Below are positions 9,438 to 54,161 of a stretch of 64,000 bases of DNA, piece after piece. The translations under genes and the position numbers were made by a program. The DNA is from an uncultured Acidobacteriaceae bacterium (GTDB lineage: Bacteria > Acidobacteriota > Terriglobia > Acidiferrales > UBA7541). Under the pieces are notes generated by a model. The model had not been told where the DNA came from and made no database searches. It saw only the letters and a list, made by a program, of their open reading frames with translations. Each line of letters opens with the position of its first letter. Within the stretch, counting starts at the first letter, position 1. The stretch spans positions 2,600 to 66,599 of the forward strand of contig CAZIWR010000001.1 of NCBI GenBank assembly GCA_964542805.1. Reading direction: 5' to 3'.

Positions 9438-10817
9438 GTGGAGAGGTGTTCCATTCCTCGAGAAGAATTCAACCGATCCGACATCGACGGACGCTGCACC
9501 GCCGCGCCACGCCGCGCCGCGCGCGCGCTGCAACTGGTGTTGCGCCTGATTCTCCTGCTCGCTCTGGTCTACGGCATTTACCAGGTGGTGCGCCGCGCGG
9601 CAGCCTCGTGGTTTGTCAGCCGCGCCAGCCGCGCCGCCAGCCAGCCCGGTAACGCCTCGCCCGAGATCGCAGACAATCTGCGCCGCGCCATGCAATGGGA
9701 TCCGGACGACCCGCGGCATCCTGCGCTGCTGGCGCGCGCCCTGCAATTCTCACTCGAGGGCGGCGACATCGCCGACGTGCTCCGCCTTTCCGAACGCGCC
9801 GCCACACTCGGTCTGCACCGTGCCGGCGTGTGGGTGAATCTTGGCGCCGCCTACGAGTGGGCCAGCCACGCCGCCGCCGCGCAGCGCGCCTACGCACGCG
9901 CTCTCGCCCTTTTCCCCAACTCGCCGGAGATCAACTGGCAACTGGGCAACTATGCGTTGCGCTCGGACCGCATTCATGAGGCCGCCGCATATCTCCGCAC
10001 CTGCGTGTTGCGCGACGCGGCGCTGCGCCGCCCGGCGTTCGACCTCGCCTGGCGCGCCACCAGCGACGCTGCGTTCGTCCTCAACGAAGTTGTCCCGCCG
10101 GAAACGCACGCGCTCCTCGCCTATCTCGACTATCTTTCCGAAACCGCGCGCATGGATGCAGCCGCGGATGTCTGGGCGCGTCTGCGCGACGCCGGCCTCG
10201 CCTTCGAGCCCAATGTCGCGTTTCGCTACCTGGACGCCCTGATCGAGCACCGCCGCATCGCCGAGCTCGATGCTGCGTGGACCGCGCTGGCCGCGCGATA
10301 CCCGGACAAACTTCCGCAACGCGGCCCGGTAGAAAACCTCATGGTGAATGGGGATTTCGAGACCGCGCCGGTGAACGGTGGCCTCGACTGGCGCGTCATG
10401 AAGGCGCCGGGTGTGGTCGTGCGGACGGTCAGCAGCGTGTTCTACAGCGGCGGCCGCTCGCTGGAAATTGAATTTGCCGATACGGAAAACATTTCCTACG
10501 GCCAGGTGGTCCAGTTTGTGCCGGTGCGCCCGCGTACGCGCTATCGCTTCAGCGCGTATCTGCGCGCCGAGGGCATCACCACGGACAGCGGCCCGCGCCT
10601 GCAAATCCATGAGCCGCACAACCCGACGTCCCCTCCCGTGACGCTTCCGCAGGTGATGGGCAAGACGAGCTGGACCGCCGCCACAGCGGAATTTGTCACC
10701 GGACCGCAGACGACGCTGCTCACGGTGCGGGTGGTTCGGCTGCCCAGCGAAAAGTTCCTGAAGCAGTTTCGCGGCACTGTGTGGCTCGACCATCTCTCCC
10801 TCGTCTCTATTCCGTAG
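9438..10817 (+). CDS. Membrane-anchored TPR-repeat protein with C-terminal carbohydrate-binding-module-like jelly-roll
   Basis: GTG start as given in the track. One TM segment (LQLVLRLILLLALVYGIY). TPR-like helices (AYARALALFPNSPEINWQLGNYAL). The C-terminal NGDFE...GLDW...YRFSAYLR pattern is typical of CBM4/9-like modules. Start uncertain. Confidence 0.55.
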   Translation: MERCSIPREEFNRSDIDGRCTAAPRRAARALQLVLRLILLLALVYGIYQVVRRAAASWFVSRASRAASQPGNASPEIADNLRRAMQWDPDDPRHPALLARALQFSLEGGDIADVLRLSERAATLGLHRAGVWVNLGAAYEWASHAAAAQRAYARALALFPNSPEINWQLGNYALRSDRIHEAAAYLRTCVLRDAALRRPAFDLAWRATSDAAFVLNEVVPPETHALLAYLDYLSETARMDAAADVWARLRDAGLAFEPNVAFRYLDALIEHRRIAELDAAWTALAARYPDKLPQRGPVENLMVNGDFETAPVNGGLDWRVMKAPGVVVRTVSSVFYSGGRSLEIEFADTENISYGQVVQFVPVRPRTRYRFSAYLRAEGITTDSGPRLQIHEPHNPTSPPVTLPQVMGKTSWTAATAEFVTGPQTTLLTVRVVRLPSEKFLKQFRGTVWLDHLSLVSIP

Positions 10818-12272: not shown

Positions 12273-12378
12273 GATTCAGTGAGAGTTAGAGTCATTTTTC
12301 GCCGCTTTTCGGCGGCCATCGCTCTATCTTTCACCCTGCATCACTACTGCCATTGAAATTGCAAGGAATCCTGCACCG

Positions 12379-14025
12379 GTGTTGGCTCTGCCGGCGAATC
12401 CGATGAATTGCGTCTCGCAAACGACGACCGAAGTATTGCCGCAGACTCCCCCGCCCGTGGCCCGAGTCAACGCGCAGGCCGCCTCCAGTTTTCTTCTGCT
12501 GGTGTTGCTTGGCGTGCTCGCCAAGGGCGTGGGCCTGGTGCGCGAGATGGTGCTCGCCGCGCAATTCGGCGCCAGCGGTCCCATGGACGCCTACCTCGTG
12601 GCGCAGACCCTGCCCTCCGCCGTGCAGCGCGTCTTCGACGAATTGCTCGGCGCCAGCCTGCTGCCGCTGTTTGCCGGATGGGTGGTGGCCGCCGGTGAAG
12701 CCGCGGCGTGGGCGCGGTTGAAAAGCCTGCTGCGCTTTCTGCTGTGGAGCAGCGCGCTGCTGGTTCTCATTTCGCTGCCGCTGGCCGCACCGCTGGTGCG
12801 CGTGCTGGCACCGGGACTCGGCCTCGGCGAATCCTCCTTGGCCGCGCGCGCCCTGCTCATTCTTTTGCCGGGCATTGCCTTTGGTGTGGCCGGCAGCATT
12901 TTCGCCGCGCTGCTCAACTATCACCGCCGCTTCGTCTGTGCCGCCCTGTTTGCGCTGGCCGGCAACGCACTGGCGCTCGCGTGCATTTTCCTTTTCGCCG
13001 GACGCATCGGCATATACAGCGCCGCCGCGGGCGTCACCGCCGGCGCGCTGCTGCTCGCGCTGCAATGGTTCTATCTCCCCGTTGCGGGACGCCGAGAGCC
13101 GCCCGTCTCTTCCACTGTGGCCACTCGTTCCGAATTCTGGCGCCTGGCCGGACCGCTCGCTGCGGGCATCGCGCTCTTCAACCTCATCCCGCTCGTCGAA
13201 CGATTTCTGTCTTCGTTTCTTCCCACCGGCGGCATCGCGCTGCTCAACTACGCGTTCAAAGTGGACTGGCTGGCCTACCTGGTTCTTGTCGTCCCCATCA
13301 CCACCATCGCCTTTCCGCGACTGGCCGACGCGGGCGCCGCCGGCGACACCCAAAAATTTCTCGGCGCGCTCCACCTCGCACTGAAGGGCGCGTTTCTCGC
13401 GCTTCTTCCAGCGATGATTTTTCTCGGTATCGCGGCTCCCGCCGTGATCGCCCTGCTTTACGAGCGCGGCAGCTTCACCACTGTCCACACGGCGGGGACC
13501 GCGGCCATCTTGCGCGTCTACCTTTTCGGCCTGCCCGGCGCGGCCGCCACGCTCATCCTCTTTTACGCGATCTACGCGCTGCGGCAGCCCGCCGGGCGCG
13601 TGGCTGCCAGCGTGGCTGGATTATTTCTCGCGCTCAGCTTCGGCTGGCCCGCGGTGCGTGCCTGGGGTGCAACAGGCATTGCCGCCACGCACGCCGTCAA
13701 CTTCACCGCCCTTGCGCTGCTGCTGGGTGCGTACCTCACGCGCTCGCTCGGCCGCGGCTGGTGGCGGCCGCTGCTTGGATTCTCTTTGCGCGCCGCCGTC
13801 GCGGCCGCAATCGCCTGGTTCGCAGGGCAGCAACTCCTGCGGCTCTGGATCGAGGCCGAGACCTTTCCGCGCAGCATGATGGAACTTCTTGCCGGAGCCG
13901 CCGCGTCGGTGGTCTTTGTCCTGCTCGCTTGGCTCTTCCGGTTGCAGGAAATCCGCGACCTCGTTTCCCAGATCGCTCGTAGCGCCGAGCTTCCTCCGGC
14001 AACTCATCCGGGAGGTGAATTGTGA
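12379..14025 (+). CDS. MurJ/MviN-family lipid-linked oligosaccharide flippase
   Basis: 548 aa, polytopic. N-terminal LAKGVGLVREMVLAAQFGASGPMDAYLVA is the characteristic MurJ/MviN opening. The start may instead be the downstream ATG (MNCVSQ). Confidence 0.75.
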   Translation: MLALPANPMNCVSQTTTEVLPQTPPPVARVNAQAASSFLLLVLLGVLAKGVGLVREMVLAAQFGASGPMDAYLVAQTLPSAVQRVFDELLGASLLPLFAGWVVAAGEAAAWARLKSLLRFLLWSSALLVLISLPLAAPLVRVLAPGLGLGESSLAARALLILLPGIAFGVAGSIFAALLNYHRRFVCAALFALAGNALALACIFLFAGRIGIYSAAAGVTAGALLLALQWFYLPVAGRREPPVSSTVATRSEFWRLAGPLAAGIALFNLIPLVERFLSSFLPTGGIALLNYAFKVDWLAYLVLVVPITTIAFPRLADAGAAGDTQKFLGALHLALKGAFLALLPAMIFLGIAAPAVIALLYERGSFTTVHTAGTAAILRVYLFGLPGAAATLILFYAIYALRQPAGRVAASVAGLFLALSFGWPAVRAWGATGIAATHAVNFTALALLLGAYLTRSLGRGWWRPLLGFSLRAAVAAAIAWFAGQQLLRLWIEAETFPRSMMELLAGAAASVVFVLLAWLFRLQEIRDLVSQIARSAELPPATHPGGEL

Positions 14026-43919: not shown

Positions 43920-44918
43920 TTATTTCGCCCACGCCATTCCGTCCGGCTCGGTGCCCGTCTCAAACGTGCTCGCCACTTTCCGCGCGGCAATATCAATCAC
44001 GCTGACTTTGTTGGCATTCGTATTGGCCACAAACGCGCGTTTCCCGTCCGGCGTCATTTGAATGCCCACGGGCACCACGCCGACTTCGATTTTCGCCAGC
44101 AGCGCGCGCGTTTTCGCGTTGAACACGCTCACCATGTTCGACTGCGCGTTGGAGACGAACACTTCTTTCCCATTCGGCGTGAATTTCACGCGGATGGGCA
44201 TTTTTCCGCCGCTGTCGAAGCTTTCCTTCACCGCATCGCTGGCCACGTCAATCACCGAAATCGTATTCGCCCCGCGGTTGGTCACCCACACTTCTTTCCC
44301 GTCCGGCGAAATCGCGATGCCTTCCGTCCCCGCCGCGGTCACGATGGTTTTCACCGCGTCCGTTGCGCGCGTAATTACCGACACGCTTCCCGATCGAATG
44401 TTGGAGACGTACAATTTCTTCTCATCGAGTGTGGGTACCACCATGTGACTTGTTTCCTGCTCCGTCTTCCACGACTTCAATATTTTTCCGTTCGATGTCT
44501 CGATTTCGAGCACGGCCTTGTTTTCTTCCACCGTCACCCACAATCTTTTTCCGTCGCGGCTCACCACAATGCCATGCGGCCGCTTGAACTCGCCTAGCGT
44601 CCACGTCGCTGCCACCTTGCGCGCTTTCAGGTCGAGCACCGTAATCGTTTCTCCCGGCTGCTGCCGCTGCTCGCCCGGACGAACCATTCCGTACGCGCCG
44701 TAATTCGATATATAGGCCATCCGCCCGTCCGCCGACACAGCCACTTCGTGCGGCCCTTTGCCCGTCGCCAGCCGCGCCGTCACTACAAACGTCGCCGGAT
44801 TCACCAGCGCCGCCTCGTGGTCCGACTTGTTCAGCACAATCAACGTTTGCGCACTCGCCGCTCCCGCCAGCGCAACGCTTACCGCCACCAGCGCCAAAAG
44901 CATTTTCATGACTCGCAT
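43920..44918 (-). CDS. Secreted YVTN-family beta-propeller repeat protein
   Basis: Signal peptide [20 protein letters not shown]. Repeated units of the form ...P.G.A.SPDGK..YV.N...N.VSVID. Confidence 0.75.
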
Positions 44919-46568: not shown

Positions 46569-47372
46569 ATGTCCTCTCACGCCCAGCACGAATACTCCGA
46601 CGTCTTTGCCGAGTTCTACGACCACACGCCGCTCTATCGCACGCGTCCGGACATCGCTTTCTACGTCGAAGAAGCCCGCCGCGCCGGCTCCGTCCTCGAG
46701 CTGGGCTGCGGCAGCGGCCGCATTTTGATTCCGACGGCCGCGGCCGGCGTGCCCATCACCGGCCTCGACCTTTCCGATTCCATGCTCGCGCGCTGCCGCG
46801 AAAAGCTCGCCGCGCAGCCCGCCGAGGTGCGCGCTCGCGTGCGCCTCGTCCATGGCAGCATGACGGATTTCGATCTCCCGGAAAAATTCGCGCTCGTCAC
46901 CACGCCCTTCCGCGCGTTCCAACACCTCATTTCCATCGACGACCAGCTCGCCTGCCTGCGCTGCGTGCACCGCCATCTCGCCCCCGGCGGACGGCTGATC
47001 CTCGACATGTTTCAAGTGAACGCCGCGGGACTGGGCGATCCGGAATGGATGCGCGAGCGCGAAGACACGCCCGAAACCAAACTTCCCGACGGTCGCAGCT
47101 TCCGCCGCACCGCGCGCATTGCCGCCTTCCATCGCGCCGAGCAGGTCAACGACATCGAGTTCGCCGTGTACCTCACGCACCCCGACGGCCGCACCGAGCG
47201 CCACACGCAGACCTTTCCGATGCGCTATTTTTTCCCCAAGGAAGTCGAGCATCTGCTGGCCCGCTCCGGCTTCCGCGTGGTCACCGTCTACGGCGATTTC
47301 AACCGCTCGCCGCTGGCCAACGATTCGCCTGACATGCTCACCATTGCCGAGAAATCCGATGAGCGCGGATGA
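46569..47372 (+). CDS. Class I SAM-dependent methyltransferase (first gene of the RiPP-like cassette)
   Basis: Track ORF 46224..47372 trimmed to the ATG at 46569 (MSSHAQHEYSDVFAEFYD). VLELGCGSGR (motif I) and LAPGGRLILD. The 3' end overlaps the next gene by 14 nt. Confidence 0.8.
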   Translation: MSSHAQHEYSDVFAEFYDHTPLYRTRPDIAFYVEEARRAGSVLELGCGSGRILIPTAAAGVPITGLDLSDSMLARCREKLAAQPAEVRARVRLVHGSMTDFDLPEKFALVTTPFRAFQHLISIDDQLACLRCVHRHLAPGGRLILDMFQVNAAGLGDPEWMREREDTPETKLPDGRSFRRTARIAAFHRAEQVNDIEFAVYLTHPDGRTERHTQTFPMRYFFPKEVEHLLARSGFRVVTVYGDFNRSPLANDSPDMLTIAEKSDERG

Positions 47373-48477
47373 CGCGCGTTCTCTCCGGCAGTTGCTTGCG
47401 CTCTGCATCCGCCCCGCCGAGTGCGAGCTCCCTGCCGGCGACGCCGAATGGAACGCGCTTCTTCCGCTTGCTCTCGCTCACGGAGTCGGCCCGCTGCTCT
47501 TCGCCAATCTGCGCGAGCGCGTTCTCCCTGTCCAAGCCCGCGACCAGTTACGCCACGTCTACCTTTCCAATTCCTTCCGCAACGAAAAACTTCTCGCCGA
47601 GCAGCAGCGCATTCTCGACGCTTTCTCCAAAAAATCCCTTGCCGTCTGGCCGCTGAAGGGACCGCATCTTTCACAAACACTCTATGGCGACCCTGCCGCT
47701 CGTCAGGTCGCCGATTTGGATCTCCTCATCCGTCCTGAAATCCTCGCCGCTTGCGATGAGCTTCTCCATTCCTTCGGCTACACGCGCCAGGCGCAAGGCG
47801 ACATCGCCACCCTGCGCGACGCCGGCGAACTTATCTATCTTCGCTCCGCCCCGGACGTTGCTGGCTCGATGAACTATGCGGTGGATCTCCAGCAGCGCGT
47901 GCTGCCCTATGGCCGCCGCGACCCGCTCGCCGACCGCATACGTACGCACGGCCTCACGCCGGAAAATCTTCTTCTACTTCTTTGCGTCAACCAGATTGCT
48001 CACCGCTTCTCGCGCCTCAAATATCTCCTTGACGTCGCCGCCTGTCTTCGCGCGCTCCCCGCAAATTTCGATTGGAACGATTTCACCGCCACTGCGCAGC
48101 TTCTTCACTTCACTCCCGGCATCTACTGGAGCCTCTATTGGGCTCGCGACGCTGCCGGTGCGCCGGTGCCCGAGCTTGTGCTGGAAGAATTGCGCCCAGG
48201 CTGGTCTTCGCGCAGGCTGGCATCGCGCGTGCTGGGCGGCGATCCACTTGCCCTGCTCGCACGCGGCGCTTCGCTCGACGGCCCTGCAGGCGCTTGGGCC
48301 ATCCTAGCCTGCTCGCGTCCTGGCCTCCCGCGCCTCGGACAGTTCTGGCGGCTGCTGTTTCCTCCCCGCGCCACTCTTCGCCAGGAATTCTTCGACGCTC
48401 CCGGACGCTCCATCCTTTATCTCTATTTCGTCCGCCTCGCCCGCAAACTCCCCGCCGCACTGCGCCGCCATTCGTAG
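47359..48477 (+). CDS. PF14907-like 'uncharacterised nucleotidyltransferase' family protein
   Basis: Track ORF 47119..48477 trimmed to the ATG at 47359 (MSADDARSLRQLL). AVWPLKGPHLSQTLYGDPAARQVADLDLLIRPEILAACDELLHSFGY matches my memory of the NTP_transf_5 core (LKG...Y...R...D-D-L). Confidence 0.75.
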   Translation: MSADDARSLRQLLALCIRPAECELPAGDAEWNALLPLALAHGVGPLLFANLRERVLPVQARDQLRHVYLSNSFRNEKLLAEQQRILDAFSKKSLAVWPLKGPHLSQTLYGDPAARQVADLDLLIRPEILAACDELLHSFGYTRQAQGDIATLRDAGELIYLRSAPDVAGSMNYAVDLQQRVLPYGRRDPLADRIRTHGLTPENLLLLLCVNQIAHRFSRLKYLLDVAACLRALPANFDWNDFTATAQLLHFTPGIYWSLYWARDAAGAPVPELVLEELRPGWSSRRLASRVLGGDPLALLARGASLDGPAGAWAILACSRPGLPRLGQFWRLLFPPRATLRQEFFDAPGRSILYLYFVRLARKLPAALRRHS

Positions 48478-48601
48478 AGGCGAACGGAATACTCTCGCGG
48501 GTGACCATGCCCCCTTTCCCTATTCCGGAAATATACGGTTTTAAACCCTAAATTGTAGTTATTAGAGGGTGTAGATTTGGTACCCGGAACTCTGTCATTT
48601 A

Positions 48602-48631
48602 TTGACAGACATGAGCTTAGGCACGTAAAGT
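48602..48631 (+). promoter_or_regulatory. Sigma70-like promoter candidate (TTGACA-N18-TAAAGT) upstream of the kinase/PqqD/radical-SAM/peptide genes
   Basis: A perfect -35 hexamer at 48602-48607 and TAAAGT at 48626-48631, inside the only conspicuously AT-richer gap of this block (48478-48732). The -35 is embedded in the palindrome CTGTCA-TTTAT-TGACAG (48592-48608). Confidence 0.4.
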
Positions 48632-48732
48632 CGCATCACCCGAATTTTGGGTCGGCGCACAATCTTCCTCTCGCGGACCGTTTTGGTTCGCTGGCGCCTG
48701 CCCAGTCTGGGATTCGAGGAGGCCTTACCGGG

Positions 48733-49494
48733 GTGGCTCACGCCCCTCAGAGCACGCCGCTGTCTGTGTCCATCGGCCGCGTTCCCCTGACGCTATTCTT
48801 TCGTGAAGCCGCACTCCAGCAAAAGGCCGCCGCGCGCTATTCCGCCTTCCACAATTCTTCGGAAAACGGCTTCCCCGTTTACCTCGAACCGGATAAGAAT
48901 TTTCATCCCGGCACGGGTTTCGATTTTTCCCTCCACGGCGCCACGCTGCGCCTGGACTCCGCCGCCGCGCGCATCTCCGGCATTCAGTCCGACTACACGG
49001 TGGATTCGCTCCTGCGCGTGCTGCTCTCCATGATCTTGCTGCCGCATCGCGGCTTCCTGCTGCATGCGGCCACTATCGAGCGCCACGGCCGGGCCCACAT
49101 CTTCATGGGCCGCTCGGGCGCGGGCAAAAGCACCGTCGCCGGACTGGCGCCTGCCGGCACGCCACTTACTGACGAAATCTCTCTGCTGCGCGGCGACGCC
49201 GATGGCTGGCGCGCGCACGGCACGCCTTTTTGGGGCGAGTTTCGCGCCGGCGACCGCAATTGTCACATGCCTGTCGCGGGTATTTACGCGCTGATGCAGG
49301 CTGAAGAAAACCGCCTGGAAAAGATTGCGCCGCGCGAAGCCCTGCGCGGGCTGCTCGAAAATGTTCTGTTCTTCTCCGATGACCGTGCCTCGCGCGAACA
49401 GCTGTTGAGTATCGTCTCGGCCTGTGCCGAAGCGCTGCCCTTCTTTCGCCTTCACTTCAAGCGCGACTCCAGCTTCTGGGAGGTGCTCCCGTGA
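48733..49494 (+). CDS. HPr-kinase-like (HprK C-terminal domain-like) P-loop kinase
   Basis: FLLHAATIERHGRAHIFMGRSGAGKSTVAG is the HprK-like H-A-(A/S)...G.SG.GKS P-loop. I chose the GTG at 48733, preceded by GAGGAGG 10 nt upstream. The track start at 48577 (TTG) is an alternative. Confidence 0.7.
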   Translation: MAHAPQSTPLSVSIGRVPLTLFFREAALQQKAAARYSAFHNSSENGFPVYLEPDKNFHPGTGFDFSLHGATLRLDSAAARISGIQSDYTVDSLLRVLLSMILLPHRGFLLHAATIERHGRAHIFMGRSGAGKSTVAGLAPAGTPLTDEISLLRGDADGWRAHGTPFWGEFRAGDRNCHMPVAGIYALMQAEENRLEKIAPREALRGLLENVLFFSDDRASREQLLSIVSACAEALPFFRLHFKRDSSFWEVLP

Positions 49495-49811
49495 GCGCCC
49501 CGCAGCCGGCACTCGCCTCCGTTCGCCCGGCGCAGAATCCGCTGGCCGCCTGGCGTGAAATTGACGGCGTGGTGGTGGTGATTTCGCCCGAGGATAGCGT
49601 GCTGCACGAGCTCAACCCCACGGCCGGATTCATCTGGAAGCACTCCACCGGCGAGCGCACCGCCGAAGAAATCGCCCGGCTCCTCGTGGACGAATTCGAA
49701 GTAGACGCCGCCACGGCGCTGGCCGACACGCGCGAGCTCATCGCCGAGCTGGCTGCCAAAAAGCTTCTGCATACGGAAGCCGCTGCTGCCGCGGAGGTGT
49801 CCCGTGGCTAG
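49491..49811 (+). CDS. PqqD-family peptide chaperone (RiPP recognition element-like)
   Basis: 106 aa, GTGA overlap with the kinase. WREIDGVVVVISPEDSVLHELNPTAGFIWKHSTGERTAEEIARLLVDEFEVD is the classic PqqD/RRE pattern. Confidence 0.8.
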   Translation: MSAPQPALASVRPAQNPLAAWREIDGVVVVISPEDSVLHELNPTAGFIWKHSTGERTAEEIARLLVDEFEVDAATALADTRELIAELAAKKLLHTEAAAAAEVSRG

Positions 49812-50961
49812 CGCGGCCGTGATGGACCGTCTGGTGGCGCGTTCGCTGGCGCGCAACGCCCCGCTCAACGTGCATTTCGACGTCACCTACCGCTGCAACG
49901 AGCGCTGCGTGCACTGCTATCTAGACCATGCCGACCACGGCGAGATGACCACCGCGGAAATCAAGCGCGTGCTCGCCGAGCTGGCCGACGCCGGCACGCT
50001 CTTCCTGACCTTCTCCGGCGGCGAGATTTTTCTGCGCCCCGACTTCTTCGACCTGCTGGCCTACGCCCGCCAACTGCGCTTCGACGTCACCCTGAAGACC
50101 AACGCCCTGCTTATCACCGAGGAGCGCGCCGCGCAGCTCCGCCGCCTGGGCGTGCGCCGCATTCAGATCAGCTTGTACAGCGCGGACGCCGCCATCCACG
50201 ATTGCATCACCAAGGTGCCCGGCTCCTTCGCGCGCACTCTCGAGGCGCTGCGCTTCTGCCATGCGCAGGGACTGCTGGTCAAAATCTCCTGCCCGCTCAT
50301 GAAGCAGAACATCGCCGTCTGGCGCGAAGTGCAAGCGCTGGCTGATTCGCTCGGTGTCACTTTCATTATGGACCCCACCATCACGCCCATGATGGACGGC
50401 AATCGCAGCACGTTGGACATGCGCCTGGCTCCCAGCGAGTTGCTGCCCGTGATGCAGGCCCCGGTCTTTGACACGCCCGCGCCGGCGCCCGCCAAAGCCG
50501 GGGGCGCAGAAATGGCCGCGGCCTTCGACAACATCCCATGCAGCGCCGGGCACAACAGCCTCTACATTTCGCCCTACGGAGATATTTATCCCTGCGTGCA
50601 AATGCCGCTGCCCACCGGCAACCTGCGCGAAAAATCCTTCTCCGATATCTGGTACAGTTCGCCAAAAATGCTGCGCGTCCGCAACGTCAGGGAAAGCGAC
50701 CTGGCCACCTGCAATGACTGTGACATCCGCCATCACTGCCAGCGTTGCCCGGGCCTCGCCTTCATGGAAGACGGCGATCTCGGCGGTCCTTCCGAGCGCG
50801 CGTGTGAGTTGGCGGAAGCCGCCGCGCGCCTGGCCGGCGTTCGAAATCCCGTGAGCGGCCTGCGCGCCCTCGGCCGCCTGCACGCCACATCGAATTCCCA
50901 TCCCGCTCAGCTCGTTCACATCGCTGCGCTGAGCACTTCACAGGAGCGAGATGCCCTATGA
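49804..50961 (+). CDS. Radical SAM enzyme with full C-terminal SPASM domain (peptide-modifying maturase type)
   Basis: CNERCVHC (CxxxCxxC) and FSGGE. SPASM cysteines: CSAGHNSLYISPYGDIYPC (Gx4C), CNDCDIRHHCQRC, and a further C in ERAC. The GTG start is preceded by GGAGG at 49793-49797, and it overlaps the PqqD gene by 8 nt. Confidence 0.9.
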   Translation: MASAAVMDRLVARSLARNAPLNVHFDVTYRCNERCVHCYLDHADHGEMTTAEIKRVLAELADAGTLFLTFSGGEIFLRPDFFDLLAYARQLRFDVTLKTNALLITEERAAQLRRLGVRRIQISLYSADAAIHDCITKVPGSFARTLEALRFCHAQGLLVKISCPLMKQNIAVWREVQALADSLGVTFIMDPTITPMMDGNRSTLDMRLAPSELLPVMQAPVFDTPAPAPAKAGGAEMAAAFDNIPCSAGHNSLYISPYGDIYPCVQMPLPTGNLREKSFSDIWYSSPKMLRVRNVRESDLATCNDCDIRHHCQRCPGLAFMEDGDLGGPSERACELAEAAARLAGVRNPVSGLRALGRLHATSNSHPAQLVHIAALSTSQERDAL

Positions 50962-51125
50962 GCACAAACAAGCAGAACGCCACGACCGCGGCCGGCACTT
51001 CCCAGCGGAAGCCTTACGTCAAACCGCAGTGCCTCTCGGAGAAGATTTTTGAGACCACCGCGCTCGCCTGCGGCAAGCTGCCCGCCGGCGGCGGTCTGTG
51101 TGCCGGGGCGCCCAAAGCTTCTTAG
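50958..51125 (+). CDS. Candidate RiPP precursor peptide, 55 aa, unannotated (below the ORF-track size cutoff)
   Basis: ATG at 50958 overlaps the radical-SAM stop (ATGA). AGGAG lies at 50942-50946. My translation is MSTNKQNATTAAGTSQRKPYVKPQCLSEKIFETTALACGKLPAGGGLCAGAPKAS, with TAG at 51123-51125. By my count about 43 of 54 codons end in G/C, like the neighbouring genes. It has three Cys, a Gly-rich C-terminal part and a C-terminal Ser. Confidence 0.55.
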   Translation: MSTNKQNATTAAGTSQRKPYVKPQCLSEKIFETTALACGKLPAGGGLCAGAPKAS

Positions 51126-51215
51126 TAGGTGAGACGGGGGGCGTGCCGTCTGCTGTCAGGCAAACAGCGCCGGCCCGCAACCAGATTGCGTATGCACGAG
51201 TTTTGCGGAGGAGCC

Positions 51216-51797
51216 ATGAAACGACACATGAAAGTCCTGGGCGGCGCAATTCTTCTGACGGGCGCACTGCTGGCTCTGGCAGCGCCCGCCGTCGCGCAGA
51301 ATCGCCGGCCTGAGGGCCGCGGGCGCACGGATGCGGATGGCAAGAAGGTGAAGCCGCTCAAGCCGACGGTGAATGCTGTCACCGAGGTTTTCTTTTGTGA
51401 GAGCCCCACCACGGAGTGCCGCTCCACCAACACCACGTTCACCGTTGGCAAGCTCCGCGACATCTTTGTGTTTGTCACCTGGCCCAACGTCTCCGGAGAC
51501 TTGGTGCAGACCGTGGAGTTCTTCCTGCCCGACGGCAGCCTCTACGTCAAGAAGGCTACGCCGTTCCGCGCCAGTACGGCGCAGCCCCGCGCACGCGCCG
51601 TCCTAGGGGCCTCTCCTGTGGTCGACGCGTTCCTGACTTCCAGCCGCGGCACTCCCACGGTGATTACTCCGCTCGCTGTGGCCGGCACCTACATTACCCA
51701 GCGCAGCCTGCTGGGTACCTGGACGGTGCGTGTCCGGCTCGGCGACAAACCCGTACAGAGCGCGCAGTTCACGTTGAAAGCGCCCGACCAGAAGTAA
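51216..51797 (+). CDS. Secreted hypothetical protein (Ig-like/beta-sandwich character)
   Basis: Track ORF 51129..51797 trimmed to the ATG at 51216, preceded by GGAGGAG. Signal peptide MKRHMKVLGGAILLTGALLALAAPAVAQ. No recognisable catalytic motif. Confidence 0.55.
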   Translation: MKRHMKVLGGAILLTGALLALAAPAVAQNRRPEGRGRTDADGKKVKPLKPTVNAVTEVFFCESPTTECRSTNTTFTVGKLRDIFVFVTWPNVSGDLVQTVEFFLPDGSLYVKKATPFRASTAQPRARAVLGASPVVDAFLTSSRGTPTVITPLAVAGTYITQRSLLGTWTVRVRLGDKPVQSAQFTLKAPDQK

Positions 51798-51902: not shown

Positions 51903-54161
51903 ATGAGTGCGTTCCATCGAATTCGATGCATCGTATCCCTGGTGCTGGTGGCTTTGCTCGCGTTACCGGCGCCGCCGCTCCGCGCGGACGAGGTCACCAC
52001 TCTTACCGCTTCCGCGGATTCCTTTCTGCGACAAAATGCCGCCACCACCAATTCCGGAGCACTGACCACGTTCAACGTGTCATCCACCGCAGCAGGCACA
52101 GCAAGGGAACGCGGCATTGTGCAATTTGACCTGTCTTCCATCGTCTCCACCGCGGCCGTGAAAACCTCCTTCGTGAAACTCTTTTTATTGACTGCCCCCA
52201 ACCCCGCCCGTTCCAATAGAATCCATCGCGTGACCGCTGCCGGGGCCTGGGTTGAGAGCCAGGTGACTTGGAACAACCGAGCGACCGCAACTGCATGGAC
52301 AGCCGCCGGCGGCGATTTCAATGCGACCGCCGCCAATACCCAGAGCACTGGCACCACCAACAACGTCACCATCACCTACACTCTGCTCGGCGATGGCACC
52401 GTCGCCAACATCCCCCAGGGTTGGGTCGATGGCTCCCTTACCAATCGGGGACTCATGGTCCTCGACTCGAACGAGACCTTTCAGAACAAAACATCTACGT
52501 ACGCCTCCAAAGAAAACGCCACCGTCGCCAATCGCCCGAAGGTCGAGGTTCATTTTCTTCGCGACGTTACCGTCGGCTCGGTTACCCCGGGCGTTTCCGA
52601 AGTCACTCTGAATTTCACTTTTCCGGCCGGTGCCACGGGCGCCAACTATGATGGCGCCCTGATAGCCAGAAAGCCCGGCGCGACCGCTCCCACGTTCGCT
52701 CCCGTCGACGGCACTACCTACATCTTCGGCAGCCAGCCCGTCCTCGGCGAAACGATCGCCTCCAACGCCGCCAACTTCGCCGCCTCACCCGCCACCGTCA
52801 CCGTCACCGATGAGAACGGCTCTGACAATGTCATCACTCCGTCCACCCAATACAGCTACAAGATCTACACTCGCGACAACAACTTCATCACCGGCGCCGC
52901 GGTTGTTGCTCCTCCACATTTCTCTTTGGGCAGTGCCGCCACCTCCACGGTGACCACCTCCGCCTCAGGCGGCGCCAACAAGAATTGGAGCTACAAAACC
53001 TCCAGTACCATTCTCGCGCCCCCCGGTCTCGATCCCGGCAACAAAGTCGTAGCTGGCTCGGATGACTTCGATGTTCACAGCATGAATGCCGTAACCGGCG
53101 CGCGCAATTACCAGCCCTCCAGCCCCATCGGCACCACCGGCGACATGATTCAGACCCGTCCCGCAGTGATTTCCTCGGCGGACAGCACGCTTGCCGTTGA
53201 CGTCACCTATGTTGGCTCCAACGATGGTCGCGTCTATGCGTTCAATGCCAACACCGGGGTGCTGATTTGGGTCACTCCTGCGCCCGGTTCCCCCGGCGCT
53301 CTGGTTGCTGTGGGCGGCATCATTCAGGGCGGCATCGCCTTGCAGCTCAAGAGTTTTGCCAACGGCGGCTTCACTCCCACCACGGATCTGGTCTTCGTCG
53401 GCACCCGTGAGTTCTCCACCACTGCCAACAGCGTGTACGCCCTGAACGCGAATACTGGCGCGATCGTCTGGACCTTTACCCCTGGCAACATGGACCATGT
53501 CAATTCCACTCCTGTCGTGGACTACGCTAACAACACCATTTGGGTCTCCACTCTTTCCAACCTCGGTGGCCAGCCAAGCCTCTGGAAAATCGACAGCGTG
53601 ACCGGCGCGGGCATCTCCAATTTCAGCCTCGGCGACATCAGCGGCTCTCCCACGCTGAATTTCGACAACAAGGTCGTTTACGCCGTCACCGATTCAGGCG
53701 ACCTCGTTGCCGTGCGCAACGACATCGCCTCCTGCGTCAACACGTTCTCCTTTGGCGCCACCTCCGGCACCGGCTTCCCCATTCCCATCGGCACTGGACT
53801 TCTCCGCAACGAAAACATTTTCTTCACCACCACCACCGCCGGCGCCAGCACCATTCGCAAGGTCAACTTCATTTACAACCTCACCTGCGGGGGCGAAACC
53901 ATCGGCGCTGCCGGCGGTTACACCAACCCCTCCGGCATCGGCACCATCTCCGGCCCCATGTTTAATCCCTTTACCAGTTTCATTTACGTCGGCTCCTCCG
54001 ACGGCAACCTGTACAAGATTGACCCGGCCGCCGGCACCGTCCTCGCCAGCCGCACCGTCAATGCCGGCGTGGTCATCGGCGAGCCCAGCTTCGACGTCTA
54101 TCTCCTCAAGCTCTACGTCGGCGACACCCAGGGCCGCATCTATTCCTTCGACGTCTTCTAA
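51903..54161 (+). CDS. Large secreted protein: N-terminal DNRLRE/CBM-like domain, FN3-like segment, C-terminal PQQ-like (BamB-type) beta-propeller
   Basis: Signal peptide IVSLVLVALLALPAPPLRA. The N-terminal LRQNAATTNSGA...GIVQFDLSSI...VTWNNR pattern is like DNRLRE domains. C-terminal repeats GRVYAFNANTGVLIW, NSVYALNANTGAIVW, GDLVAV, GNLYKIDPAAGTV and GRIYSFD are PQQ-like propeller blades. Confidence 0.6.
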   Translation: MSAFHRIRCIVSLVLVALLALPAPPLRADEVTTLTASADSFLRQNAATTNSGALTTFNVSSTAAGTARERGIVQFDLSSIVSTAAVKTSFVKLFLLTAPNPARSNRIHRVTAAGAWVESQVTWNNRATATAWTAAGGDFNATAANTQSTGTTNNVTITYTLLGDGTVANIPQGWVDGSLTNRGLMVLDSNETFQNKTSTYASKENATVANRPKVEVHFLRDVTVGSVTPGVSEVTLNFTFPAGATGANYDGALIARKPGATAPTFAPVDGTTYIFGSQPVLGETIASNAANFAASPATVTVTDENGSDNVITPSTQYSYKIYTRDNNFITGAAVVAPPHFSLGSAATSTVTTSASGGANKNWSYKTSSTILAPPGLDPGNKVVAGSDDFDVHSMNAVTGARNYQPSSPIGTTGDMIQTRPAVISSADSTLAVDVTYVGSNDGRVYAFNANTGVLIWVTPAPGSPGALVAVGGIIQGGIALQLKSFANGGFTPTTDLVFVGTREFSTTANSVYALNANTGAIVWTFTPGNMDHVNSTPVVDYANNTIWVSTLSNLGGQPSLWKIDSVTGAGISNFSLGDISGSPTLNFDNKVVYAVTDSGDLVAVRNDIASCVNTFSFGATSGTGFPIPIGTGLLRNENIFFTTTTAGASTIRKVNFIYNLTCGGETIGAAGGYTNPSGIGTISGPMFNPFTSFIYVGSSDGNLYKIDPAAGTVLASRTVNAGVVIGEPSFDVYLLKLYVGDTQGRIYSFDVF

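Follow-up and report, generated by a model that had tools for sequence, protein, structure and literature searches.

A short gene beside a radical SAM/SPASM gene of an uncultured Acidobacteriaceae bacterium probably encodes the precursor of an uncharacterised peptide family

Phosphorylated lasso peptides provide the closest described parallels to the locus reported here. Lasso precursors carry a YxxPxL motif at positions -17 to -12 of the leader, which is bound by a discrete PqqD-like B1 protein, and the proven lasso precursor kinase BsfK is strongly stimulated by such a protein, its RRE (recognition element of RiPPs, ribosomally made peptides that undergo post-translational modification) BsfB1 (PMC10368454). 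In pseudomycoidin, a nucleotidyltransferase adds a hexose to the phosphate (PMC8498205; PMC7533575). Outside the lasso peptides, PqqD-family proteins serve as peptide chaperones for modifying enzymes, and the radical SAM (rSAM)/SPASM maturase WgkB of the tryglysin pathway acts on a W-G-K triplet (PMC9389541). We analysed a stretch of 64,000 nucleotides from an uncultured Acidobacteriaceae bacterium (contig CAZIWR010000001.1 of assembly GCA_964542805.1, positions 2,600 to 66,599; hereafter the window), in which a preliminary description had proposed that a short open reading frame (ORF) at the end of an rSAM/SPASM gene encodes a RiPP precursor. According to our analysis, the product of this ORF is probably the precursor (A) peptide of a widespread and uncharacterised RiPP family that relies on a discrete PqqD-type RRE and is matured by the steps proposed below. 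Judged from sequence comparison, the pathway would be of the RRE-dependent rSAM type with a lasso-type tailoring module, and the status of the peptide as a precursor is well supported.

A conserved short gene and its linkage across phyla

Direct reading of positions 50800-51400 gave 55 codons plus a stop (50958..51125, plus strand), from ATG at 50958-50960 to TAG at 51123-51125, with the translation MSTNKQNATTAAGTSQRKPYVKPQCLSEKIFETTALACGKLPAGGGLCAGAPKAS, and both coordinates and translation are exactly those given in the preliminary description. The ATG shares the letters ATGA with the TGA stop (50959-50961) of the rSAM/SPASM gene and AGGAG stands 11 nt upstream, as had also been stated. The GC content at codon positions 1, 2 and 3 is 0.54, 0.59 and 0.80, the last value agreeing with the earlier estimate of about 80% and with the third-position GC (GC3) of the flanking genes, 0.71-0.82. 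The frame from a rival ATG at 50951 does have a lower GC3, as claimed, but at 0.59 it can scarcely be called AT3-rich. Within 14 kb there are 123 ORFs of at least 40 aa in DNA of 64% GC; the length of an ORF is by itself uninformative in such DNA, and the case for a peptide gene therefore rests on conservation.

A word-indexed search of 5.8 billion proteins returned 34 relatives of the peptide, at E-values of 1e-28 to 4e-3 and with 52-100% identity. Nearly all of them are 55-59 aa long (one has 81 aa), and those that have a name are called 'hypothetical protein'. A profile built from these relatives found 864 matches at E <= 1e-3, 181 of them at E <= 1e-10, among 1.84 billion cluster representatives (50% clustering), and the matches nearly always reach the final residue of proteins of about 50-110 aa. 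In Pfam and NCBIfam, neither the peptide nor any of the 34 homologues matched a family, even at E <= 10. In L007, L010 and L012, related loci of Acidobacteriota, the ORF is unbroken and likewise 55 codons long, with neither frameshifts nor stops in syntenic loci; in L007, moreover, 15 nt separate the rSAM stop from the peptide gene, so that conservation of the peptide is independent of the overlap with rSAM. By the Nei-Gojobori method, the proportions of synonymous and nonsynonymous differences (pS and pN) are 0.48 and 0.12 between the window and L010 (pN/pS 0.26) and 0.36 and 0.17 between the window and L007 (pN/pS 0.48), in counts that leave out the nine codons of FETTALACG, the pattern used for scanning; third-position variation inside this pattern (L010-L054) is unusable as a test of selection, being circular for loci that were retrieved by the same pattern. 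Conservation is thus at the amino-acid level (pN/pS 0.26-0.48), and the ORF withstands two conditions that the preliminary description had named as refuting it, broken frames in syntenic loci and conservation of the nucleotides only; by these measures the peptide ORF is a protein-coding gene under purifying selection.

The rSAM and PqqD setting on which the earlier proposal relied is present in the window, and conserved small ORFs adjoin homologous rSAM/PqqD genes in several phyla. To compare the neighbourhoods we used tblastn and custom hidden Markov models (HMMs) on 45 loci obtained from exact-protein look-ups and a scan of one genome per species; the loci come from Acidobacteriota, Methylomirabilota/Rokubacteria, Armatimonadota, Elusimicrobia, Binataceae and Proteobacteria. 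Gene order differs between groups. It is methyltransferase, NTP_transf_5 nucleotidyltransferase, ScmC-family protein, PqqD, rSAM, peptide, a secreted 193-aa protein (sec193), beta-propeller and S24 peptidase in the window, L007 and L010; propeller, sec193, S24, ScmC, PqqD, peptide, rSAM and NTP_transf_5 in Methylomirabilota; peptide, S24, ScmC, PqqD and rSAM in many Terriglobales, Binataceae and one proteobacterium; and S24, ScmC, PqqD, peptide, rSAM and NTP_transf_5 in L004. Thirty loci extend at least 3.5 kb to either side; among these, within 6 kb around the peptide, PqqD was found in 25, S24 in 24, rSAM in 21, ScmC in 20, NTP_transf_5 in 17, and sec193 and the propeller in nine each; cross-matches of the PqqD HMM to rSAM ORFs (stop-to-stop ORFs overlap) were left out of these counts. 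The linkage persists across shuffled orders in Acidobacteriota, Methylomirabilota, Binataceae, Proteobacteria and Elusimicrobia, in all in five or more phyla, and that it is kept despite rearrangement is the strongest evidence for a functional tie between the peptide and the neighbouring enzymes. The locus resembles that of a generic RRE-dependent rSAM/SPASM precursor both in this linkage, seen in 21-25 of 30 loci, and in the leader motif YxxPx(hydrophobic), which is carried by at least 178 of 181 members.

Residue counts over 182 distinct members, with the Cys of C-G-K as position 0, delimit the parts of the peptide. In the leader, Tyr at -18 and Pro at -15 each occur in 178/181 members, Lys at -16 in 163 and Glu at -10 in 177, while position -13 is hydrophobic (Phe 102, Val 26, Cys 23, Ile 10, Met 5). 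At the junction, Phe at -7 is found in 173/182, Glu at -6 in 176/182, Thr at -5 in 166/182, Ala at -3 in 177/182 and Leu at -2 in 178/182, followed at -1 by Ala (109), Ser (50), Thr (12), Val (5), Arg (3) or Gln (1). The core starts with Cys (182/182), Gly (178/182) and Lys (182/182); between this Cys and the last one there are nine residues in 150/182 members, a six-residue spacer leads from the last Cys to the C-terminal residue in 171/182, and that residue is Ser in 179/182. We infer from these counts that the leader extends to about residue 35-37 and that the core comprises about 18-20 residues. The preliminary description had drawn the boundary near residue 24, which is too early: the segment K18-P-Y-V-K-P-Q-C25 lies inside the leader, and the invariant F-E-T-x-A-L-x junction comes later. 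It had also assigned Cys25, Cys38 and Cys48 to the core of a three-cysteine peptide. Cys38 and Cys48 are indeed conserved, but Cys25 is replaced by Phe, Val, Ile or Met in most relatives, so the family has two conserved cysteines, and Cys25 fills the hydrophobic slot of the leader motif rather than being a core cysteine. What stands out most among the invariants, C-G-K at the start of the core and Ser at its end, had escaped that description. A near-invariant core is unusual for RiPPs and hints at a conserved cellular role. The sequence A-L-A-C might also be read as the lipobox of a lipoprotein, a reading that is out because no hydrophobic signal segment precedes it. In the Terriglobales locus L027 there are two precursor genes (9983-10171 and 12283-12456), the second of which, directly upstream of S24-ScmC-PqqD-rSAM, has diverged in the otherwise 'invariant' block (FETMALACAK).

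Enzymes predicted to act on the peptide

In NCBIfam, the top match of the window PqqD protein is the Streptomyces-type lasso PqqD chaperone (E 9e-9, under the cut-off), and BLASTP aligned it with BsfB1 over 90 residues (E 5e-5). The BsfA leader has IYKKPQL, 11 residues and then G1, and the window peptide PYVKPQC, 11 residues and then A37; the 17-residue ruler of lasso peptides would accordingly start the window core at A37, with Y20 and P23 in place and a hydrophobic residue at position 25. As a first step of maturation, the leader would be bound by PqqD through Y20-x-x-P23-x-hydrophobic25, in the manner in which lasso B1 proteins bind YxxPxL.

The rSAM enzyme, which has a CxxxCxxC motif and a SPASM domain, lacks a fused RRE, because its rSAM motif begins at residue 31. 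In NCBIfam it is about equally like many peptide maturases, namely MftC, WgkB, StsB, GeoRSP, PqqE, ScmE, ACGX and AlbA, and the nearest solved structures are SkfB (1e-11) and PqqE (1e-10). The invariant residues available to it are Cys38, Gly39, Lys40 and Cys48, and in a second step it may make one or two crosslinks at Cys38 (in C-G-K) and/or Cys48. A Cys-derived thioether is the most economical guess and the most likely product of the rSAM enzyme. The example of WgkB indicates that an X-G-K site can be a target of such an enzyme, which for C-G-K is an analogy only.

The ScmC-like protein gave weak sequence matches to TIGR04249 (ScmC), to two 'HprK-related kinase' models and to the PEPCK P-loop. 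It has at least 850 homologues of about 253 aa, and PF27840 was present in all 120 of those listed, which reach down to 97% identity. An AF2 model from 45 sequences (pLDDT 90) matched ATP-PEPCK (E 1e-8, TM 0.5-0.58) and then HprK/P (E 6e-4 to 1e-2), and this predicted fold would place the protein in the PEPCK/HprK P-loop superfamily. To compare it with BsfK, we took the BsfK sequence from the methods of PMC10368454 and aligned it to the ScmC family profile with hhalign. The match has a probability of 96.5% and E 9.6e-10, and its 141 columns run from the His-P-loop segment as far as the C-terminal strand. The family invariants are H111, the P-loop GRSGAGKST (GxSGAGKST) and D147-E148, and the BsfK residues that matter for catalysis, H148, K169, S170 and D186/D187 (PMC10368454), correspond to H111, K132, S133 and D147/E148. 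The ScmC-like protein is thus homologous to a proven peptide kinase that is assisted by an RRE, and it keeps the catalytic residues of that kinase. Two hallmarks of a module for phosphorylating, or phosphoglycosylating, a C-terminal Ser are found here, the kinase fold with its catalytic set and the terminal Ser itself. Near-invariant hydroxyl residues of the peptide family are limited to Thr at -5 and the terminal Ser (179/182), and by analogy the terminal Ser is the best guess for the phosphorylation site. In a third step, the kinase would therefore phosphorylate near-invariant Ser55, as in paeninodin-type lasso precursors; in a fourth, the nucleotidyltransferase would decorate the Ser55 phosphate, as in pseudomycoidin; and in a fifth, the methyltransferase may add one more tailoring step. 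When plasmids were searched with NTP_transf_5 (tblastn) for homologues linked to lasso genes, only weak matches were obtained. On the Crinalium epipsammum plasmid NC_019735.1 (L056, 8433-21386), an NTP_transf_5 homologue forms part of an operon whose other genes encode an ABC transporter, a TPR protein, glycosyltransferases and a methyltransferase, and a gene annotated 'HPr kinase' lies about 6 kb from it; this is possibly another tailoring pair of kinase and nucleotidyltransferase, outside lasso clusters.

The S24 protein aligns with human SEC11A/C across GxSMxP, HR and GD; its Ser42, His80 and Asp99 are each conserved in 38-42 of 44 family sequences, and it scored 50.8 against TIGR02228 (archaeal-type signal peptidase I), whose cut-off is 51.85. 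No hydrophobic or transmembrane segment was found in the window protein or in four called homologues. It is the most constant neighbour after PqqD and is often adjacent to the peptide gene or overlaps PqqD. Signal peptidases prefer small residues at -3 and -1, and the junction of the peptide family fits this rule, with Ala at -3 in 177/182 members and a small residue at -1 in 171/182 (about 94%). In a sixth step, the soluble Ser/His/Asp S24 peptidase would remove the leader in the cytoplasm at A35-L36-A37/C38. A comparable soluble protease is SodX, the S26 maturation protease of nickel superoxide dismutase, which likewise has no membrane anchor and works in the cytoplasm, where it trims an N-terminal extension. 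Together, the six steps should yield a peptide of about 18-20 residues, C-G-K-x9-C-x6-Ser(P-X).

Beyond rSAM and PqqD, the cluster thus includes genes for a homologue of peptide kinases, for a nucleotidyltransferase and a methyltransferase, and for a soluble protease that resembles signal peptidases (Table 1). Gene starts were corrected from the lengths of homologues: the TTG starts of the ORFs are too long by 52 codons for ScmC (48577), by 80 for NTP_transf_5 (47119) and by 48 for S24 (54188), and the starts adopted are GTG 48733, ATG 47359 and ATG 54332, respectively. The methyltransferase gene is also present in the close relatives L007 and L010; L004 and several Methylomirabilota loci have it on the opposite strand. 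The protein sec193 recurs in Acidobacteriota and Methylomirabilota loci; it has no Pfam match, and comparison of its AF2 model by Foldseek gave generic Ig-like matches. Two of its cysteines are invariant (C61 and C68), and the signal peptide leads into a linker of about 30 residues that is disordered and basic.

Table 1. Features of the peptide locus, in window coordinates
Feature	Position	Strand	Basis
Class I SAM-dependent methyltransferase	46569..47372	+	Methyltransf_25/12/11/23
NTP_transf_5 nucleotidyltransferase	47359..48477	+	PF14907, 140 bits vs cut-off 31
ScmC-family (PF27840) P-loop protein, predicted precursor-peptide kinase	48733..49494	+	Homologues, fold, hhalign
Discrete PqqD-family protein, presumed RRE	49491..49811	+	PF05402, 62 bits
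Radical SAM/SPASM enzyme, 385-aa ORF	49804..50961	+	PF04055 plus PF13186
AGGAG, Shine-Dalgarno-like	50942..50946	+	Sequence read, 11 nt before ATG; function inferred
Precursor peptide gene, 55 aa plus stop	50958..51125	+	ORF, homologues, profile matches, synteny, pN/pS
Y20-V-K-P23-Q-C25, leader motif YxxPx(hydrophobic)	51015..51032	+	Y 178/181, P 178/181, hydrophobic sixth position
F31-E-T-T-A35-L36-A37, leader/core junction, candidate protease site	51048..51068	+	Residue counts, small -3/-1 rule
C38-G-K-x9-C48-x6-S55, predicted core	51069..51122	+	Residue counts
Secreted 193-aa Ig-like beta-sandwich protein (sec193)	51216..51797	+	Signal peptide; AF2 plus Foldseek
Secreted CBM96/DNRLRE plus PQQ_2-type beta-propeller protein	51903..54161	+	Pfam, NCBIfam
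Soluble Sec11/SipW-type S24/S26 peptidase, 164 aa	54332..54826	+	PF00717

Some observations concern the surroundings of these genes. A 255-nt gap (48478-48732) separates NTP_transf_5 from the corrected ScmC start, and the sole sigma-70-like match of the region, TTGACA-18-TAAAGT at 48602-48631, falls inside it; given this match, ScmC, PqqD, rSAM and the peptide may form a separate transcription unit. A search for a terminator or attenuator 3' of the peptide ORF found no terminator-like site and folding no better than that of shuffled sequences, and Rfam gave zero matches in the entire window. In nine Terriglobales-type loci, secreted Thr/Gly-rich proteins of about 600 aa without a Pfam match adjoin the peptide cluster (L034, 5089-6855 on the minus strand; L047, 7839-9689 on the minus strand; also L017, L027, L039, L042, L048 and L053), and these may be counterparts of the beta-propeller protein of the window. 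A gene for a YNCE/lactonase-type beta-propeller lies upstream of the cluster on the opposite strand, both in the window (43920-44918) and in L007 (2146-3144), which probably reflects shared regional ancestry rather than a component of the system. The homoserine dehydrogenase, cyclophilin, Ser/Thr kinase and epimerase genes outside the cluster are apparently unrelated.

Counter-evidence and rival explanations

Several observations weigh against the interpretation as an rSAM-, kinase- and S24-matured precursor. The rSAM enzyme reached no cut-off of an NCBIfam equivalog or characterised family (MftC 128 vs 265, PqqE 105 vs 381, WgkB 109 vs 650, StsB 108 vs 625, AlbA 88 vs 850), which makes its reaction type a guess. 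NTP_transf_5 is missing from about 40% of the loci, and all-against-all clustering of neighbouring ORFs found no conserved transporter/exporter or immunity gene. BsfK phosphorylates Ser3 of its core and not the C-terminal Ser (PMC10368454), so homology alone leaves the phosphorylation site unfixed. As for the S24 peptidase, position -1 is Arg or Gln in 4/182 members, which is unsuited to a signal-peptidase site, and cuts after A35 or L36 would fit equally: cleavage of T-x-A/L agrees with the signal-peptidase rule, and the lasso ruler cuts after L36.

The Armatimonadota loci belong with these points. Their first group has an operon of an Antibiotic_NAT acetyltransferase, a SpoIID-domain protein, S24, PqqD and the peptide (L001, 5271-8177; also L019, L022, L025 and L029-L031), with no rSAM, ScmC or NTP_transf_5 gene within 10 kb, and in a second group no machinery at all was detected near the peptide. 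In L038 (6882-12847) the peptide lies between an ECF (extracytoplasmic function) sigma factor and a 1590-aa Ig/beta-propeller protein, and in L036 (9225-10090) it follows a PIG-L deacetylase and a 149-aa protein without a Pfam match. In the Armatimonadota peptides C-G-K, the last Cys and the terminal Ser are retained, and a third Cys is added (ACGKCTSGPFSQFAC...NS in the first group). As the invariants are kept with no such enzymes nearby, rSAM and kinase alone do not explain them, unless these are encoded elsewhere in the genome; either the missing enzymes are indeed elsewhere, or the invariants serve the function of the product or its recognition by S24 and PqqD.

Among the rival explanations, the one that survives best accepts the same precursor and differs in the product, which would be no secreted RiPP of the antibiotic type but a conserved housekeeping small molecule (a cofactor, metal ligand or signal). 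The cell would make this molecule and perhaps use it, either internally or in concert with the co-encoded secreted beta-propeller and Ig-like proteins. Pyrroloquinoline quinone (PQQ) and mycofactocin are precedents for a peptide-derived housekeeping product. The core is invariant across phyla (C-G-K in 178-182 of 182 members, fixed x9 and x6 spacers, terminal Ser in 179/182), a conserved transporter or immunity gene is lacking, as just described, MftC and PqqE are among the better rSAM matches, and secreted PQQ_2-type propellers stand beside the peptide in Acidobacteriota, Methylomirabilota and one Armatimonadota locus. However, the signatures of PqqA (E...Y) and MftA (C-terminal VY) are absent, the MftC and PqqE scores are far under their cut-offs, no redox enzyme is consistently linked, and the propellers carry carbohydrate-binding modules and are missing from many loci. 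We regard such a product as possible but on balance unlikely.

Clearly less probable is a variant in which the kinase serves dehydration: Ser55 or Thr33/34 would be phosphorylated, the phosphate eliminated, and Cys48 added to give a lanthionine-like C48-S55 ring, following the kinase-then-elimination logic of class III/IV lanthipeptides. The C-x6-S spacing, fixed in 171/182 members with both residues near-invariant, and the peptide-kinase homologue in the cluster would suit such a ring, but the conserved gene set has no phospho-Ser/Thr lyase or cyclase domain, NTP_transf_5 argues for a phosphate that is kept and extended, as in pseudomycoidin, and a C-terminal dehydroalanine is expected to be unstable.

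We give slightly less credit still to the idea that the peptide is an unmodified small protein, a partner, regulator or substrate of S24 and PqqD, with the rSAM and other enzymes acting elsewhere. It would account for S24 and PqqD, and not rSAM, being the most constant neighbours, and for the stand-alone copies in some Armatimonadota, one of them beside the ECF sigma factor; yet PqqD-family proteins are peptide chaperones for modifying enzymes (PMC9389541), the rSAM gene is adjacent or translationally coupled to the peptide gene in most loci, and the leader motif is that used by RiPP recognition elements.

A lasso peptide precursor is very improbable, despite the YxxPx(hydrophobic) leader motif at lasso-like spacing and a set of PqqD/B1-like protein, kinase and nucleotidyltransferase such as phosphorylated lasso clusters have. 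When neighbouring ORFs from about 45 loci were clustered all against all, neither a lasso cyclase nor a B2 peptidase was among the conserved neighbour families, and with no Asn-synthetase-like cyclase or B2 transglutaminase-type peptidase in the window cluster or in this set, and no conserved Asp/Glu at core positions 7-9, gene content effectively refutes this possibility. Finally, although spurious ORFs of similar size are plentiful in the region, the idea that the ORF is open by chance in GC-rich DNA, or marks a conserved non-coding element, is refuted, with next to no probability left to it, by protein-level homologues down to E 1e-28, 864 profile matches ending at the protein C-terminus, pN/pS below 0.5, and the lack of an Rfam match in the window and of significant RNA structure downstream of the ORF.

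Significance and comparison with known systems

The reading that we prefer, a precursor matured by PqqD-guided enzymes, has a far-reaching form: a new multi-phylum RiPP class, defined by a PqqD RRE, a soluble Sec11/SipW-type leader peptidase and the core C-G-K-x9-C-x6-Ser, in which an rSAM/SPASM enzyme has joined, by recombination, a lasso-derived module (leader, RRE, kinase and nucleotidyltransferase) and whose product is physiological and not antibiotic. Taken as a whole, this is a tentative proposal that we would not expect to hold in every part. If true, S24 would be a new type of RRE-guided leader protease; we know of no characterised RiPP leader peptidase of the soluble Sec11/SipW-like S24 type. 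The peptide gene was missed in the ORF track, being shorter than 60 aa, yet is key to a nine-gene cluster, and its family comprises at least 864 sequence clusters from hard-to-culture soil and groundwater phyla such as Acidobacteriota, Methylomirabilota and Armatimonadota. With a substrate known, the function of the ScmC family (PF27840), an orphan rSAM/SPASM clade and a candidate leader peptidase become testable. The likeness in leader motif, PqqD, kinase and nucleotidyltransferase suggests that lasso and radical SAM RiPP pathways have exchanged modules, and the near-invariant core together with the recurring secreted beta-propellers leaves room for a non-antibiotic role. The family appears undescribed: it has no Pfam or NCBIfam model, and the full-text literature searched, most subscription journals being outside it, held nothing on the motif or the gene combination.

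Among the systems with which the locus can be compared, PQQ and mycofactocin differ in that the window peptide has neither the E-x3-Y of PqqA nor the C-terminal Val-Tyr of MftA, and no conserved core Tyr. Sactipeptides (SkfA/SkfB, subtilosin/AlbA) and ranthipeptides/SCIFF share an rSAM/SPASM enzyme, an RRE and a Cys-containing core, but in the window the RRE is discrete and not fused, there are only two conserved Cys and no family cut-off is reached; membership in the characterised sactipeptide, ranthipeptide, PQQ and mycofactocin families is ruled out by these scores. Unlike that of bacteriocin-type RiPPs, the window core is far more conserved. With tryglysin the locus has in common an rSAM/SPASM enzyme and an invariant X-G-K; the first residue of the triplet is Cys and not Trp, however, so that the chemistry cannot be the same, and the WgkB score is, as noted, far from its cut-off.

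SynChlorMet (SCM; TIGR04248-04251, PF27840) shares the triad of a ScmC-family P-loop protein, PqqD and rSAM/SPASM. All scores are under the cut-offs (ScmC 44.8 vs 125, ScmD 28.9 vs 100, ScmE 103.5 vs 400, ScmF 71.3 vs 400), and whereas SCM has two rSAM/SPASM enzymes, ScmE and ScmF, the window has one, with S24, NTP_transf_5 and methyltransferase in addition. Membership in the SCM cassette is thus ruled out by equivalog models far under cut-off and by the single rSAM. To our knowledge, no precursor has so far been assigned to SCM, whereas that of the window is evident. Like Sec11/SipW, the S24 protein has the Ser/His/Asp motifs GxSMxP, HR and GD and an A-x-A-type junction in its presumed substrate, but it is without a transmembrane segment and is encoded with an RRE and a RiPP precursor.

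The locus departs from lasso systems in that an rSAM/SPASM enzyme and a Ser/His/Asp S24 peptidase replace the cyclase and the B2 cysteine protease, and in a core with two invariant Cys and no ring-forming Asp/Glu. With the phosphorylated lasso systems (paeninodin PadeK; ThcoK/SyanK; pseudomycoidin PsmK/PsmN; Bradymonas BsfA/B1/K/N) it nevertheless shares a YxxPx(hydrophobic) motif equally far from the junction, a discrete PqqD-type protein, a kinase of the HprK/PEPCK fold, an 'uncharacterised nucleotidyltransferase', and a precursor that ends in Ser, the site of those kinases other than BsfK.

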